From Girardia tigrina (lineage: Eukaryota), in the NCBI GenBank assembly GCA_001938485.1, contig MQRK01251261.1, positions 1-50,615 on the forward strand: 50,615 nucleotides of DNA. The letters run 5' to 3'. How positions within the stretch are numbered: the first letter of the stretch is position 1; every line of letters starts with the position of its first letter. The notes beneath the pieces were generated by a model. It saw only the letters and a list, made by a program, of their open reading frames with translations, was not told where the DNA came from and searched no databases. A program made the position numbers and the translations under genes. Shown in pieces: positions 1,139 to 14,500 of this stretch.

Positions 1139-3389
1139 TAAGATGAATAAAAATATAACCCTAACCATAAACATATGATATTGATGTAGGCCAGTACGGA
1201 AGCAAGGCCAAGAACAGTATTTAAACCATTTTATTTTCTCTCGTGTAATATTAACGAGCGTCGAACATTATAATGAAGTAAAATCTTATAGAAAACTGAC
1301 TTTAGAATCAGGAATTATGTCTGCATTTAGATGAATCTTAATTCGAGAATCGTCGATATCAATATTCTGACAGTAACAAGAACCTTTAATTGCAATTAGA
1401 GACACTAAAATTGTAATTTAAAATGTTTAAATCAATTTAAGTAATTAATTTTTTTACAAAATATTACCGAAAAAAACGTATAATTGCATATTTGGAGTTA
1501 ATTGAAAATGATACAAACAAACAATCTGAAGGTCATTCGAATGTAAAGAAGAATTATAATTCGCAAATGGTGATCCAAAAGAAATAGTGAACGGCACCAA
1601 TTTTTATATTTGTATATTTTTTATATTTACTTATGAAATTTTGAAATTTTGGAAAAATTTTATTTAAGCAACATTAAAAAATAATTTTATCTTTAGTAAT
1701 TAAAATGAAATATTATTCTTAGTTTTTAAAAATTTTTAGCGAAAGTGGGAAAATTATGATTTAAAATAAAGATTGAAAGTATTTAACACCTGAAAGACAT
1801 GAAACCACTGAAACATGTCATCATATAATACAACAATTAGGTTTTTGTATCATAATGAAACAGACCAATTAAGAACTTTTATATAAATTATACTGGATTT
1901 CAAGATGTCGCTGAATCAAACATCAGCAGGTTAGACCTCGACAAACGAAGAGCAAATTATTCATAGACCCCAAATGATGCAATATACTTGTTAAGTAAAG
2001 TCATAAACCCGCAGACATGCAATCAAACCTACAAGCATTCCTGAACGACCATAGATTCCATTGAGAACCCTCAATTGAAAAGGTAGTCGTGCAACATGAA
2101 TTTACATACACCATAGCCTGTTATTTCAAATACCAAAATGGTCAAACAGTTACATCTGCAAACAGTTACTAATCTAAGTCAGCATATGCAGATGCTCGAA
2201 CAGGCCAATCGGCAATATTTCTAATTATGCTGCAGTCAATGGCTGATAACATTCCTACAAGTCAACATACATGCATGATTAAAACTCTACAGAGACCATT
2301 TATAAATACAGATGACAATTCAGTGGCAAACTCACAGCCAAAATAAAATTTTCTAATTCTATATATTCCATGCTACGATATTGTATCATCACTAATATCC
2401 ACCATTATCCACAGAGAAGGATTGCGTGTGTTCCGGGTTTCCGCGGTTCGATTTTCCGAGGAGCGGGGTACAAGGGAGCGGCAATGATGCGTTATTTTAT
2501 TTAATTTTATCTATTTAAAGTATGTGTAATTTTAGCTTTTAGTCATTTTATTTTATTATATTTTATTCTCATTATATAGTTATTTCATTGCCTATTAATT
2601 GTAATTTTCTTAATCGTTACATACATCTTGTATCACTATGAGGAGTTAATTTAAATTTGCATTTAGCCAAAATAGTTTATTATTTTTTTTAATTTGAAAG
2701 TTTTTAAAAAAGAAAATAAATACAAAAGTTTTACAATTAAAAATGATATAATAAAGAAAACCATCAAAAATTAAATACTTATTTAAAAATACAAAAAATG
2801 TGTTCAGTTATAACACTTCATATATTTTAATAAAAGTTTCGAAATAAATTATAATAAATTTTAAAATAAGTTTTTAAATAAATTTTAAGAAATAATTTTG
2901 TTAAATAAAAGGCTTATGATAAATTTAAATTAATTAGTTTAGGATAAAATTAAATATTTTTAGTTGTAATTTAAAAAGTATTTTATTAATTTAAAGTTTT
3001 AAAATTTATTAAATTTTTAAAAAATTGAATTCGAAGAAAAATTTAGTCGATTAATTTTGGCTAAATAAGTGAATTAAAAAGAAATTTGTTTAATTATATG
3101 AATTATGGTTATTAATACAATTTTGATGTTAAATTATGAATATGATTCTAGCGATAATAAAAATGGCATAAACGCTACTTATAATCACAACTCTATATTT
3201 TTAATTTACTCATAAATTTACGAATTTTGTCTAATTTATTCTTATCGTTTATTTTTACAATCTACGATTTCGATTTATAAGTAATTTCTTTATAACAAGT
3301 TGCTAGTTATTTTACGATCTTATGGTTGTTGGTCAAATGTGTTAATATCGTAATTGTTTCTTTTATCTTTGCTTTATAATTACTTCACT

Positions 3390-4305
3390 TGTCGGTCACG
3401 GGGTTGTGCTCTACACCTACTATGCCCTTTTATGAATATATAATATGTTACGCTGGAGATCCTGAGCAATCCGATAACGCCGCCACCCCACACGCCAGGA
3501 GCCTTTGAAAGGAGAATGAGTTGGTCATAGTCTAGGTCGACTATAACCAGTGTGTGTAGATAGGCTCCAGAGTAGGTGGAGCGATTGACGAAATTGGGAG
3601 GCCTGTTACACTACGCGTCTGTGGCCGGAGAGGTTGAGACTGACTGTGAGCTGAAAAAATCAAATTAATTAAAACCAAAAACCCCGAGAAGACTATAAAA
3701 GCTCATCTGAAGGCAATAGAAGCCGGGAAAAGAGGTCCAGACGAAGATTGCTGGTAGTGGAATACCCATAATCCTGAGAGAAGGTGGCAAGTGTTAACGT
3801 AGACCCTTGAGAAACCCCTGAAAAGTAAAATAAAGTTGAAATTAATTAAGAGAATTAATTAAAAACAAACCATAATCCGATTGCCAGACAGCTGTGTAGG
3901 TGGATTCCGGGTCGTCCTGGGTAGGAGATAATTAAATAAGGACATTTTTATGATATGCTTACCAGAACTGCACAGTCCACTTGAATGCCGGTACAGTCGC
4001 GGAGATTGAGAGGCCAGTCCTCAAGAATCAGGTGGGGGCCGCATGAAGCGATACAGTGGCATAATTACCTAAATTATAAAATAATCAGATAAACAACTGA
4101 TAAACGTCTGACATCCCAGAATAAATCTTACCGACCCAGGTAAACCTGCTGTCAGAGCAACATGATAAGCCGGTGAGAGGATTACCCGAACTGCAATCAT
4201 AAATCAGTGAAAAACCCCGTATCCTGTCCTCGATAAGCCAATATAATATAAATACCCGGCACACCGAACACCACACACGCACACCACACTTCACATACAT
4301 TTATA
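3390..4305 (-). ncRNA. Putative multi-exon spliced transcript (lncRNA or decayed small gene)
   Basis: GC-rich blocks separated by AT-rich GT-AG segments at 4191-4255, 4069-4131, 3917-3962, 3818-3870 and 3651-3682; TATAAAT at 4299-4305; no long ATG-initiated ORF after splicing. Confidence 0.5.
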
Positions 4306-5156
4306 ATTCAGTTTATTATACAAGATTTTAAGAGAAGTTTCCATTTTTGGAACGGAGCGATTTTTTATTGGGAACGCTAAGTCGGATTTTGGAACGAGCC
4401 TACTATTTACATTTTGACGATTGAGCCCGAGATCATTTGCAATTGCGAATTTATTTGGAGGTATGTTTCCGTTAGATTTTATTATGTTTAGGAATTTTAT
4501 TATCGTTAATTAAATGTTATATTTTATTATATTATGAATTTTATTATTGATAATTAAATGCATTATTTAATTTTGTATTTCAATGTGTCGTTTTGGTTAT
4601 TAATATATGTTTTCGATTGCAATGGCTCCTCGATTTTAATGAATAAGCTCGGTTGCATAACCACCCATGGTGATGCGGTGAAAGGCATGGGCTTTCGAGA
4701 TGTATCGGTCCGATATTTATTGACGGAGGTTATGATAGTCGGACCTGTTGTGTCACGGTTAGGCGGACAAAAGAGGCCGCGTAAGAGTAAGGAGATTATA
4801 ATAAGGAGAGCAGACATGAGAATGGATTCCCAGAACCATCATGAGGTGGGAGTCGGAGTGTCCATTATAGATTAAGTTGTACAGGTTGTGTAAATGGTGT
4901 AAATATACCTTGCTAGCCCATTTCTTTCGCCCGTGAATTTCGATGAAGTATTTATTTCGTTTATTTATTTTTTTTTGTTTTTGTGTTTTGTTTTTTTTGT
5001 TATTATATAATTACATAATAATCAATATAAATAAAATTCAGCTGCGTGAATAAAGTTGCGTAATCATATAATATTAAGGAAAGTCAAATAATAATAAGTA
5101 TTAAAGGGTAATGATAATATTCATAAATCTAAAGACGAATATAATTATAATCAAGG

Positions 5157-5198
<42 letters not shown>

Positions 5199-5439
5199 AA
5201 ATTGCTTAAACACAAAATATTTCTAATTACATTTGTTTATTTATTCTCCTAAAGAATTAACGGAATTTGAAATTCGGAAGCTAAGAATTGTTCAAATTGT
5301 ATTATAATTCTTCTAATTTCAACTTGATGTTTATGTTTTATTAGCTGCTTTTATTAACGTTTTACCGTTTTCATACAATATGCATTCCAATGGTTATCCA
5401 ACAATCATTATTGGGGAAGAATAATTTTCGGAAATATAC

Positions 5440-5990
5440 ATATCGATATGTATATCGATAGATTGAGTATATGACAGTAAATAGGATTGTGATAACAGTT
5501 CGAACGAACGTAATTGTCCGAAATTTACTTGTGATTTAACGAAGTTTGCTTATCCAAATTCAAACCAATGTTTTGAGGGATATTAACATTGCGATGATAG
5601 TTTGGATGATAGCGATGAAGTTTATCGTAGTAAACTATGTGACAGAAGGACACAGTACGATTGTAAAATTGGTGGAAATACATCGCGTATTCCAGTCGAA
5701 AGTGTTTGCAATAAAGGTGTGAGATGCTTGAATAAACCGAATTGTTCAATCGATATATGTGATGCTCGAGAGGAAAAAGAAAAGTGCAGTCATAAATGCA
5801 TTAATACTTTTGCTTGTGCTTGTCCATCGGGAATGATGTTGAACGAGGATCAAAGAACGTGTAAATAGAGTATATAAAATTTGATAATAACTGAGGAATA
5901 GCAATGTAGGTTAGTAATTACATTTGATAGAGTTATTTGGTAGTTTTCTGAAAATCGATAGTATAATGCACGACAAATAAGTGATGATGA
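5440..5990 (+). pseudogene. LDL-receptor-related (LRP-like) gene fragment: LDLa repeats plus EGF
   Basis: DCDNSSNERNCPKFTCDLTKF...*HCDDSLDDSDE...CSHKCINTFACACPSGMMLNEDQRTCK*; stops, lost cysteines and deletions. Confidence 0.7.
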
Positions 5991-7249
5991 TAATTATCGA
6001 TATGTAAATACTAGCGTGAAATAGACCGATGAGTCTTAACCTAGTGTACTAATTTAAAATGTTCTATAATGATTCAGAAGCATTAAATTCAGAAGTATAA
6101 AGTACTAAATGAACTGTAAATAAAATCGATGTCAACAGTTAATGAAGAGTGATTTCTCTAAACATCCGAACAGTAATAGTATATTCTAATGGAGATTTTT
6201 CGGTATCGAGACGTTTAATAACGAGTCGAGTATTTGAACCCTAGTTATCTTTCTTGAATATGCATCAATTTAAATAGGGAGAAATCGAACTTCAATAACA
6301 TATATTCTGTCTGTAAGAAGTAAGAACGAACAAGGTTATTGTAAAACCTTTATTCGTCGTTAATTTCAAATAAAGGCTTTACAAGCGAAACAAAATAAAA
6401 TAATGTAGATAACAAATGAAACTATATTAATTAATTAACAAACAAATTCAAAAGAAATAAACACAGACCATAAAAAATAACTTCCAGTGAAAAAGATTGA
6501 GTTGGGAATTGACATTGGATGCTAATAGGGAAACAATTGTTTTCTGAAGCAGCTTATCTCTGTATTATCTCTGAAAATCCACTAATCCATTGCGTATTGA
6601 TTTTTTTATTTTAGTATATTTTTTTATATTATATTATTTATATTATAATAAATAAAATTTCAAATCATGCTTGACGAATAGATTAATAAAATAGAAGCAT
6701 CTTCGTCTATCTCATTTTGAAAGCAGAATTTCAGCAAACAATTTATAAATATTTACAATCTTCTTTTTCATCAAGATAACTCTTTGAAACACTATTACTC
6801 TTTCAGCAGCATTCAAGCAGCATATTCCTATTCGAAATCAGCAAAGAGAAACGTAAGATTTTTCCCTGCTTTCGACATTGAACTCTTTATTCGATACTTT
6901 CGTCAGAGACAATTTTCTTTCCTTTTTAATAATTCTTGAACAGGAAGAATATCAATAAAAAGTACATTTTCAGAAATAGAATCCCGTTAGTTTTTGCAAA
7001 ATAAATAAATAAATAAACAAACATTCGAAAGCACAATCAACCATGAAAATACATACATCAAACACGAAATAAACATCAGAACACTCGAAAGTAAACACCA
7101 AGGTCAAAAAGCACACAAATAAAGTAATCACACAGTGTCAGTAGTAGGGCACTACAGTTATGAACTTAATATTAAATGAAAAGAAACGAAAAATATAAGC
7201 CGTGTCAAATATTAACAAATCGTGCGAGGTTTAAGGTTATGTAAAGTAA

Positions 7250-7600
7250 ATAATTTCGACTTCATGAATTGTTTCCCCTGCAAATCTTCATTATCTGAGA
7301 TGAAAGACTGTTTACTCTTTATGGCCCATAATCAAGACATGAGTCTCAAGAGTGGAAGTTGCCAGGGGAAGGGTGTTCGAAGAAGATGCGATCATCAACC
7401 TCTCACAAAAAAGCTCTTATGCTCACCACTTTTTGGGATGCAAATGGAATGATCCTTGCTGATTTTGCGGAAGCTGGTGTTCGTATCAACAGTGAATACT
7501 ACTCCCGGCTCGTGCTACAGGCCAGAAAGCTGAGAAGGAAGAGCAGAGTTTGTGAGTTATATTATTTGCACCACAATACACCCATCCACATCTGGTCAAA
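7250..7600 (+). mobile_element. mariner transposase fragment
   Basis: KKALMLTTFWDANGMILADF...INSEYY...LYYLHHNTPIH; same family as 32570-33554. Confidence 0.85.
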
Positions 7601-9869: not shown

Positions 9870-10901
9870 TCATCCAATTTCGATTTCTTTGCTCACATTA
9901 ATTTGAGACATTCGTTTTAAAGCTGTTGCCATTAAACCCAAACATCTCCATCTTAACCGAGATATAGAATCATACAATTCTTCGTTTTCCACAGCTACAT
10001 AATGTGAATTGTCAGTCCGAATGATTTGCTCTTTGAACCAAACATGCTTTAACGCCTTATCAAGATTGATTCTGTCTGCCGGTCTGATTTTTAAAAGGTA
10101 AGAAACTAAATCTTTCGCCGCCTGAGAAATCGTGTCCCAAGTTGGACTGGAAAATTTATATTCTCCTCGAATTATTTTCGATCTGATTTCTGTATCGTCA
10201 CGAGTTGTCGAATAAAACGGAGCAAAACCACACAAAAGAATATAAGCCATCACACCTATACTCCATATATCGACTTCCGGTCCATACCCTTTTCTATCTC
10301 GACGATTTAATAACAATTCCGGAGCCGAATAGTCCAACGTTCCGCAATTCGTCATCATAAACTCACTTGCTTCTCGTGATAAACCGAAATCAGTTAATAG
10401 AATAATTGAATCTTTTTCTTTAGTTTTAAACAAAATATTTTCCGGCTTCAAGTCCCGATGAACGAATCCACACTGGTGCATATGTTGCACAGCTGACAGA
10501 ATCTGTTCTAAAATCCGCGCTGCATCTTTTTCGGCAAAACGTTTTGTACTTATAATCCTATCGAACAGATCTCCACCTTCAGCTAAATCCATTATCAAAT
10601 AAACCTCGTTTTTATCTTCAATGACTTCGATTAACTTAACGATATTCGTGTGATTTAAACTTTGCATTACTCGCGCTTCTCTCATCATCATTCGTTTGAT
10701 TTTTTTATCCCGTTCTTGTGGCGAAGAAGCTTTAGCGAAAAACGGTTTGGCTTTATCGACTCGTTTAATGGCGACATAAATATCGTTTTTGGGGTCCCTT
10801 CCTTTCAACACTTCACAAAATCCACCTTTACCCAATTCTTCAATTATCTTATAACGGGAATTTTCAGGAAAGGTTTTCTTCTTACTTTCCGATTTCGACA
10901 T
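9870..10901 (-). CDS. Intronless Ser/Thr protein kinase, CAMK group (CaMKI-like)
   Basis: Intact 343-aa ORF: [49 protein letters not shown]; C-terminal basic amphipathic [17 protein letters not shown] resembles the CaMKI calmodulin-binding helix. Confidence 0.92.
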
Positions 10902-11527: not shown

Positions 11528-14500
11528 CTGAAAATAAATATAAATTAAACTAGAAACAACTGAATTATTAAAATAAAATAACACAAGAAATGCGAGATGC
11601 TAATATACTTAATATATTTAATATTACTAAATCAAACATTAAATCAAACGTTCTATGTCAATACACAAAAGGGGGATTGTTTCCAACAGACCGGTCCGAA
11701 AGAAGGACAGAGAAAAGCCTAAGACTCAAATATGAGCCGCCTGGAGGCAAAAGTGTTACACTACCAACATCGAAATTCGTCAAATGCGTTCTTCATTGAT
11801 AAAAATTGAACATATTAGAAGTTTGTTAATTTTCATTTCACTGATCGAGATTTAAATAATTTTAAATTTAAAATAGATATGCAAAATATTAAATCTATAT
11901 ACAATTTAAATATTTAAAATTGAAGTTGAATTTTATTTATTATTTGTTTTAAATATTTAAAAATGTTTTTTAATTACTTAAATAATTAACATTGTTTTAA
12001 TTATAGGCTGTGTCGTAAAAAAAACGGCATTTTTTTAAATACGTGTATTAATATAAACACTATAAATACTCCCCTCCTTTCTCCAGAATAGATCGTAGGT
12101 CCAAACAAATATTTTCAACAGCACCTTTCATCCGCTCTCCATGAAATGTCGGCAAGTGGAGTCAAAGGAATTCCTCCAATTTTTACGATAAATTCTTCAA
12201 TTCTTACGACTATACGATGATTCAGAGAAAACGCCGTTTTTTACGACATAGCCTATATTTAAACTTAACCCCTTACCGCACAGTGGATCACATATGATCC
12301 AAAATAATTTTTTATAATGTTATTACTATAAGTTCAAAGCTTGCCATGTATGAATCAAACTGTTTGTTTGGATATTCTATATGAAAAAATCATTTTTTTT
12401 CAAAATAAAAAATACATATATCTTTATTTCTATTTTCCTATTGTAAACTGCATTTACTTAAATTAAAAATATTATTTTTAATTATTAAAAAAATATTTTA
12501 AAACAACTATTGTTGTTTTAATATTCAGAATTATCAAATAATAAACTTTCAAAAATCCTGTTTTATTGTTCTTTTAATAATCGATGGATGAAATTTACAA
12601 TGGTATCAGAACTGGTTCGCTCGATTGCAACCAAAGTACCTACAAAACTGCCGCAATACTTCGATGCGGCGGACATGTGGTTTCGACAAGTCGAGACCGT
12701 TTTCAAATTGTCCAAGATCTCCAGTGAAACGACGAAATTCCTTCACGTCACTGCCAGTCTTCCACAATCCATTCTCATGGAGTTTCAAGTATACTTCAAT
12801 ACCGAATCGGCAACACCGTATACGGATCTCCTTCAAGCAATAATCCGGAGTCGCAGACAACCATCATCAGATCACATTGATGAGCTTTTCTCCGCTAACG
12901 GCATGGGCGACCGACGTCCGTCGGAGCACCTATGGATTCTACAGCGTCATCGTGCTCAACTTGGACCGATTTCCGAAGACGATCAAATTCTACGGAACGC
13001 CTTCCTGCGGCCACTTCCGATTGACATCAGGAAACACCTCATCGCAAAGGGAACCAAAACTTATCACACCTAGCCTCTCTCGCGGATGATCTACTCCGGG
13101 TTAAACAACCCAACTTTATAAATGTCGCGGAAACAAATCCTTTCCTAGCCCAAATTTTAGAAAGTCACGGATGAAATAAATCAGCTCAAAAGGAGAATAG
13201 CCAAAAGCGAAAACCAAGACCAGACAGTCATGTGCTATTATCACCGTAAATTTGGTCACAAAGCACAGAAATGTCTCAAACCATGCAACTGGAACGAACA
13301 CAAATCTTCGGGAAAAGTCAAAGGTTCGACGTGAAACAGGTAGTGTCGAACCACACAAAACCACCGGATCAGGTATCCTTAATTTTTACTGTTCCAGCCA
13401 CCACAAACAACAAGGTACTTCACTTTCTCGTCGACACGGGTACCGACATAAGCATCCTACCCTACAGCCTATTCCAACCCAGCGGCGGATCGGAAACTCA
13501 GAAGCTCCTGACGCCAAATTGGCAGGATATCCCTACCTACGGGAGACATACGATCGAATTCCAGTTCACAGGAATACAAAAAAATTCAAGTGGAGCTTTA
13601 TACTGGCCGACGTCCAGAGACCGATTTTAGGATCAGACTTCCTTGCTCACGAGGACATCACTGTAAACTGCAAAAGAAATCAAATCTCAACAAGAAACCA
13701 AACTATCTCGGGATCAACGAAGACATGCCACAGGGTTACGCTCTCAGCAACCGAGGTCACACTGGCATTGCGAATAGAAACAAACGGTCCTGCAATCGCC
13801 CAGAAACCAAGGAGAATTGGGAATCACATTCTCAGCACAATCCGCGAGGAATTCGATCGCCTATTAGCAGAAGGCACAAATAGAAGAAGCACGAGCTCCT
13901 GGTATGAGAATGAGTTCGGTTATTTTAATAGGATCTCGGTATCTCAATTCTCCTGGAAGATTAGATAAGGGTTTCTCGTCCATCAGATGACCATAATTAT
14001 ACATTAAATCGATGTGTTTCATTTCAATTCTCGTTTCACTAGGACCGTCGAGTCTTCAGTAATAAAAAGAGTAATTACTTTTACCAAATTTTTACGAACA
14101 CCTTCATTAGTTTCAAATTAACACACTTTATTCAATAAATCACAACGTTAATAACGTAAATCGGATAATAAATCGATTATTTGAATTTTGTTTTCTTTTT
14201 AAAGCTTTGATTGATTTAAACAAAGAGACCAATTTTCTTGCTGGCAAAAGAGTTGATGATTTTGTCGAAATCAATTTTCTTCACTAGCTCTTGTTCGATG
14301 GACGAAATTGCCAGATTAGTGAGCCGTAAATTAGTCATCGTTGATCTCAAATAGTTTTTTTATCAATTTAAGCTTCGAAAAACTAACCTACATGTTGCCA
14401 CACTCATCCCATTTCTCAGGAAGATGCGAATCAAGATTACGATGTTCGGAACTGAATCATCCAGTCGATACTTTCTGATGAAACTCAGCTGCTCGACAGG

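Follow-up and report, generated by a model that had tools for sequence, protein, structure and literature searches.

TART is reportedly the source of spliced antisense transcripts, according to the paper devoted to that element. Non-coding, multiply spliced antisense transcripts of Drosophila HeT-A, and also of TART, are described in the accessible parts of PMC2615633 and PMC3235214, which present both as telomeric non-LTR elements and the RNAs as shown by RACE; the text available of PMC2615633 calls the purpose of spliced antisense retrotransposon RNA 'elusive'. Retroviral 3′ LTRs also give antisense RNAs, namely BLV AS1/AS2, HTLV-1 hbz and HIV-1 Ast, and as far as the accessible portion of PMC10186651 goes, these start in the 3′ LTR and extend into the viral body, AS1/AS2 being spliced and probably non-coding and HBZ being coding. 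Among planarian elements, Burro/GYPSM1 has an internal region of up to 25 kb, a polyprotein of ~5000 amino acids and env between gag and pol (PMC6431247, accessible part), and the gypsy LTR elements of planarians are major targets of piRNAs whose activation depends on the tissue (PMC8532177, accessible part). Our literature search, with most subscription papers and the primary Burro paper outside its reach, returned no account of a gypsy U3 with antisense micro-introns. The locus described here makes it easy to ask why antisense RNAs of retrotransposons are spliced, its predicted introns being short and modular, conserved across dozens of diverged LTR families and packed into less than 1 kb.

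The locus lies in a window of 50,615 nucleotides from Girardia tigrina (contig MQRK01251261.1). A sequence-only reading had proposed, on the minus strand of positions 3390-4305, a six-exon, GC-rich spliced unit with no intact ORF, and had left three options for it: a spliced non-coding RNA, a recently disabled orphan gene or an intron-bearing LTR unit of a mobile element. We find no host gene here: the stretch belongs to a right-truncated solo LTR of a Ty3/gypsy-type family and forms its U3 (promoter) end. The third option is therefore borne out by LTR ends, target duplications, polypurine tract (PPT) and PBS-like flanks, the first survives as the best reading of the product, and the orphan gene is abandoned in view of the dispersed repeat, its LTR-end borders and the lack of purifying selection on the frame. 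On balance, we favour the view that the reverse strand of this U3 encodes a spliced, non-coding antisense RNA from a bidirectional LTR promoter, with a structured motif near the LTR edge. Like the HeT-A and TART RNAs, in so far as the accessible accounts describe them, this mostly predicted RNA would be an antisense, ORF-less, multi-intron transcript at a retrotransposon promoter region, and its splice sites are better kept than their fast-changing surroundings. Unlike those elements, the carrier is the U3 of a dispersed gypsy-type LTR, with micro-introns of 40-70 nt in swappable modules and a conserved hairpin. With BLV AS1/AS2 it would share the use of an LTR as a bidirectional promoter, whereas up to five predicted introns lie here wholly within the U3, and of an invertebrate retrotransposon, which sets the locus apart from the retroviral RNAs in the part of PMC10186651 available. 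By analogy, we are inclined to think that the antisense RNA would work like the HeT-A/TART and BLV RNAs while belonging to neither family.

Comparison of copy number, termini and target duplications, which had been suggested as a check, revealed a high-copy repeat with a common sharp end at 3446 and 4-bp target duplications. LTR status follows from the TGT..ACA ends together with these duplications, the PPT and a common PBS-like junction. A genome search with positions 2400-5100 gave at least 44 matches (40 scored of 4054 first-look candidates) that start near 3446 and, where long, are 89-97% identical; a further search (40 scored of 572 first-look candidates) likewise identified a dispersed repeat. 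The genomic copies place the left border abruptly at TGTTAC (3446), so that positions 3390-3445 are flanking DNA outside the repeat and the unit does not extend to 3390 as had been drawn. Over the U3, the window copy shares 95% identity with the copies closest to it. Complete LTR copies measure 1.6-5 kb and have TGT..ACA ends. A 4-bp target duplication was seen in nine of 11 complete solo copies (14 paired ends, minus two that are 3′ LTRs and one nested start), a tally taken from other copies since the right end of the window copy is missing and outside the window.

The window LTR (3446-7304, plus strand) is a decayed family member, an ordinary carrier of an unusual but reproducible feature. 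It runs through 5033, resumes after an internal deletion of ~0.75 kb near 5030, is interrupted by a nested insertion at 6340-7156 and breaks at 7304, with ~600 bp of its 3′ end missing. A short solo LTR at 3446-5015 with a TATTA duplication was considered and rejected, as other copies continue past 5015. The nested insertion is an unrelated high-copy repeat of 817 bp with TGT..ACA ends and a 5-bp target duplication, probably the solo LTR of another group. At 5500-5865 (plus strand) the LTR contains a coding fragment resembling LDL-receptor-A domains, as judged by eye, and EGF domains (cEGF, E=3.9e-5; FXa_inhibition, E=2.4e-4; both under the Pfam cut-offs), which is broken in the window copy and spans 130 stop-free codons in two other copies. 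Nine loci (L050-L056, L059 and L062) have a common left flank of at least 0.7 kb, reflecting either one LTR insertion multiplied with host sequence or assembly haplotypes.

Left LTR ends, including junctions into U3 relatives of the window copy, are preceded by a common internal sequence ending in a purine tract, and the exact pattern of PPT plus LTR start returned 88 junctions versus one in the control. Sixteen right LTR ends are followed by one common internal flank that starts with a TGG-containing, PBS-like 18-20-mer; we take this to resemble a tRNA-Pro site, no tRNA having been matched. An alternative PBS search requiring TGG within 5 nt of the LTR end was discarded, its 12 hits having mostly unrelated flanks. 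In one relative with the same PPT (L153), the same strand encodes RVT_1 (reverse transcriptase, E 2.5e-12) followed by RT_RNaseH_2 (RNase H, E 4e-13); a protease-like stretch was recognised by eye only, and no integrase was seen in this relative. PPT, PBS-like junctions and the strand of reverse transcriptase and RNase H together establish that the LTR reads on the plus strand, that the stretch is its U3 and that the proposed unit is antisense. From its PPT-proximal edge to just past the TATA box, a U3-like region can tentatively be delimited at 3446-4270 (plus strand) as the variable, modular 5′ part of the LTR; subfamilies swap sequence at ~4270-4280.

The right end of this type of LTR and the PBS-like site also occur in an element (L144) that is decayed or non-autonomous, because its internal region of ~7.5 kb has no long ORFs. 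In L153, the 3′ LTR is directly preceded by an ORF of 454 codons (L153:7367-8728) that has a hydrophobic tail, and a similar long ORF is present in L155 and L158; a Pfam search of these ORFs gave no match, and we call them env-like by position and hydrophobic C-terminal stretch only. A MATH-like ORF near one relative was set aside because it is 12 kb distant. The family is akin to Burro/GYPSM1, as the available part of PMC6431247 describes it, in its long LTRs, its gypsy-type reverse transcriptase and RNase H in a relative and its captured extra domains. It differs in having internal regions of ~7.5-8 kb, in that no giant polyprotein was seen in this fragmented assembly, where longer relatives may be missed, and in the position of the env-like ORF, which directly precedes the 3′ LTR and does not lie between gag and pol. 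These features do not support placing the family in Burro. Several right LTR ends have a purine run of their own just before the terminal ACA (for example L022:5995-6043), and ~40 nt inside the conserved right LTR end there is a TGGGGGCTC word that resembles the beginning of the PBS-like site.

All five GT..AG segments of the sequence-only reading are present on the minus strand, at 4191-4255 (intron 1, 65 nt), 4069-4131 (intron 2, 63 nt), 3917-3962 (intron 3, 46 nt), 3818-3870 (intron 4, 53 nt) and 3651-3682 (intron 5, 32 nt). They contain 17-35% GC versus 47-58% in the blocks between. The likeness to host micro-introns also stood: those of the EGF-repeat (Jagged-like) gene in the window measure 42-63 nt and have similar donors (GTAAT, GTAAA, GTATT and GTACT), matching the antisense segments in size and style. 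What remains of the original observation is the segments, the composition, the open frame and introns 2-4; introns 1 and 5 as drawn are doubtful, the TATAAAT promoter lacks support, and the border at 3390 does not remain.

In the 25 other copies compared, introns 2-4 retain their GT and AG ends in 111 of the 119 cases covered. The two ends are retained in 13/13 and 17/17 covering copies for intron 2, in 19/21 and 22/22 for intron 3 and in 21/22 and 19/24 for intron 4. As predictions, introns 2-4 therefore hold up beyond chance. The acceptor of the 32-nt intron 5 is kept in all 25 copies, but its donor in only 18; 24 of the 25 have a donor lying 24 nt farther upstream, which is broken in the window copy. 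Most likely, the 32-nt segment is the 3′ part of a predicted intron of 56 nt (3651-3706). Intron 1 is doubtful, its 'donor' at 4255 being the reverse complement of the TATAAATAC TATA box of the LTR on the plus strand (4247-4255); a TATAAATA-like box on that strand ends the U3 in ~19 of 24 representatives, with or without an antisense acceptor after it. The minus-strand TATAAAT at 4299-4305, proposed as promoter, occurs in only three of seven aligned copies. The six-exon model, its first exon and its TATA box are unsupported. In several families the sense TATA box (window 4247-4255 and homologues) lies within a short inverted repeat, and two-directionality is possible. Neither an antisense start site nor a poly(A) signal was identified, and AATAAA is not significantly depleted on the antisense strand (3 versus 5.6 ± 2.1).

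The splice signals were then counted across the clade with a fixed rule (GT donor class, length 40-70 nt, at least 66% AT, T-tract, AG), which calls only two of the window's own segments. Applied to 24 U3 representatives, about one per U3 type and drawn from 95 deduplicated candidate starts, the rule found 49 antisense micro-introns versus one sense, with at least one in 23 of the 24; 26-36 of the 49 are non-redundant. Two hundred shuffles within 10-40-nt windows averaged 8.5-9.5 calls with a maximum of 18, and antisense density was 2.85 per kb versus a background of 0.52 per kb. The rest of the LTR has 2-4 sense-strand calls per 3-4 kb, near background. Since the rule was written after seeing this first set, it was applied to held-out LTRs, comprising 40 more of the 88 PPT junctions. 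A minimum of 250 usable bases left 34 of them, and removal of redundancy 32; the check is a partial one, as the 40 include no fewer than four that are near-identical to LTRs examined before. The 32 gave 37 antisense versus three sense calls, with at least one in 26 of them (shuffles 10.9 ± 3.0, maximum 18).

Intron 4 represents a clade-wide type. A TTAATTAA-bearing GT..AG segment of 44-63 nt is found in 20 of the 24 representatives, compared with 6 of 24 in a looser sense-strand control, and recurs in held-out LTRs; ten different donor hexamers occur among 21 introns of this type, and length is mostly 48-56 nt. The U3s of sister subfamilies and families are mosaics that often have no alignable sequence, yet they have a common minus-strand layout. 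A composition-only boundary test, which is noisy and weaker, placed GT plus AG at 17 of 35 blocks versus 6 of 35 on the opposite strand (11/25 versus 5/25 after redundancy removal). Judged by their signals, canonical antisense splice sites are kept across subfamilies and in U3s of unrelated sequence.

A check for covarying structure among copies, likewise suggested earlier, uncovered a conserved hairpin with an 11-bp stem and a 6-nt loop at 3522-3549 on the minus strand. Across families it lies ~30-190 nt from the LTR edge, and in the window its fold z is -2.8 on the minus strand versus -0.3 on the plus strand. Over 20 families, 90.5% of cells are paired and 21 are compensatory (two-sided), a level reached by none of 500 shuffles, a control open to inflation by relatedness of the families; the number of pairs with two-sided change (four) is not above shuffles. 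Its core was found in 36 of 40 held-out LTRs, two of which have compensatory inner-stem changes. The G-U pairs that are fixed within families speak for the minus strand (18/18, 7/7 and 6/7 copies; in two related families minus only), and single-copy wobble pairs split roughly evenly between strands. An Rfam search of 3300-7400 returned two chance-level hits, none in the U3, and no gathering-score match for the hairpin. The hairpin may also act on minus-strand DNA as reverse transcription proceeds. A word rich in A/T and resembling TATTTAAA lies 5-6 nt upstream of the hairpin (minus strand, window ~3553-3562; alignment A2) and is partly conserved in many families.

Ten runs, all with small word shares, offered contigs, all of them unstranded; five runs were used, and X5, X6 and X8-X10 were left out. 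One contig of run X2, which is only guessed to be RNA, skips 3916-3962 (depth 7.55, 49 letters on the short side); this joint equals intron 3 plus one differing letter beside the junction. Exact probes for a genomic copy lacking intron 3 or intron 5 found none. The contig is a hint of splicing in vivo. Most contigs are unspliced, and several in all four runs on the window cross the introns. On a second U3 type, likewise in four runs, contigs cross unspliced with no joint at four predicted introns, and the joints seen match genomic length variants rather than predicted introns. Such unspliced cover is expected under either reading because the U3 is also part of the 3′ end of sense RNA and solo LTRs can lie in pre-mRNA; the unstranded contigs may be sense RNA, pre-mRNA or DNA. 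A further joint at 4017-4062 (X2 and X3) was read as a subfamily variant, given its non-canonical ends and replacement letters.

According to the reading we favour, the LTR promoter would fire both ways, and the antisense RNA would start near it and run outward through the U3. The introns would outlast retrotransposition since they are never spliced from the sense RNA that is packaged, and selection would keep them because it is important for the element that the divergent RNA be spliced. Splicing would most likely stabilise the antisense RNA and tune sense-promoter output or silencing; the GC-rich 'exons', which are rich in words resembling what we take to be ETS, Fox and GATA sites, as an enhancer should be, may double as enhancer modules, and the hairpin may act as a 3′-end or protein-binding signal. 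If so, the U3 would act as an enhancer and also at the RNA level, through splicing and a structured motif, and new host transcripts could start from the spliced, outward-facing leaders that solo LTRs provide. It is possible, though we hold it to be unlikely, that the clade keeps efficiently spliced antisense micro-introns and a 3′ hairpin as an anti-silencing device, in which a divergent transcript dressed as host mRNA is spared by piRNA/siRNA pathways and boosts the sense promoter. In that case solo LTRs, in their thousands, would also seed the genome with preformed spliced 5′ leaders.

Alternatively, the U3 could be an enhancer/promoter array only, made up by turns of GC-rich blocks that bind factors and AT-rich TTAATTAA/Fox blocks. 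The GT-AG ends would then be relics or there by chance, and the hairpin would be a DNA palindrome or would work on minus-strand DNA in the course of reverse transcription. Several U3 words are indeed enriched: TTAATTAA occurs 55 times versus two expected, TGTTTA 43 versus 13.5 and CAGGATG 20+10 versus about one each. The mostly unspliced contigs and the weaker composition-only test speak for this explanation as well. We nevertheless regard it as rather unlikely, since local-composition shuffles account for only between one fifth and one third of the introns counted in either set, intron length stays in the host range while the donor sequence changes, one contig is spliced, and compensatory changes in held-out LTRs extend to the inner stem.

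The antisense unit might instead be a spliced, fast-evolving accessory gene that encodes a short protein, has an HBZ-like layout and is decayed in most copies. The ATG-less open frame reads as the sequence-only reading gave it and spans two junctions, and in one of 24 representatives in-silico intron removal yields a 131-codon ATG frame (0/100 shuffles), with two others at p 0.02-0.04. The conserved spliced ORF that had been sought among copies did not emerge: from substitutions common to at least two copies, pN/pS is 0.67, 1.0 and 1.62 in three spliced frames, the value of 1.0 belonging to the frame first noted, and thus gives no sign of purifying selection. Exon lengths differ between subfamilies by non-multiples of three, frameshifting exon indels are common to copies, tblastx of the U3s added no pair beyond blastn and showed no strand preference (26 versus 25), and six-frame Pfam searches of the U3 gave no match. 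By these comparative measures the antisense strand appears to hold no conserved protein; a short-lived peptide may exist in some lineages, and a protein-coding explanation is distinctly unlikely.

More doubtful still is that the U3 modules are captured host-gene fragments in reverse orientation, introns included. The EGF-like coding fragment in the same LTR and the mosaic nature of the U3s would fit such an origin, but the order of TTAATTAA intron, hairpin and TATA box is constant across ~20 families, and the exon blocks carry common LTR words without coding signal. A host lncRNA or recently disabled orphan gene, for which the exon/intron-like composition might argue, has a negligible chance of being correct and is refuted as to origin by the high-copy repeat with its LTR ends, target duplications, PPT and PBS-like flanks. 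Elsewhere in the window, positions 9870-10901 (minus strand) hold an intron-less ORF of 343 codons that by eye is like a calcium/calmodulin-dependent protein kinase and is possibly a retrocopy, and fragments of another gypsy-like gag/protease region were recognised by eye at 12522-13968 (plus strand).
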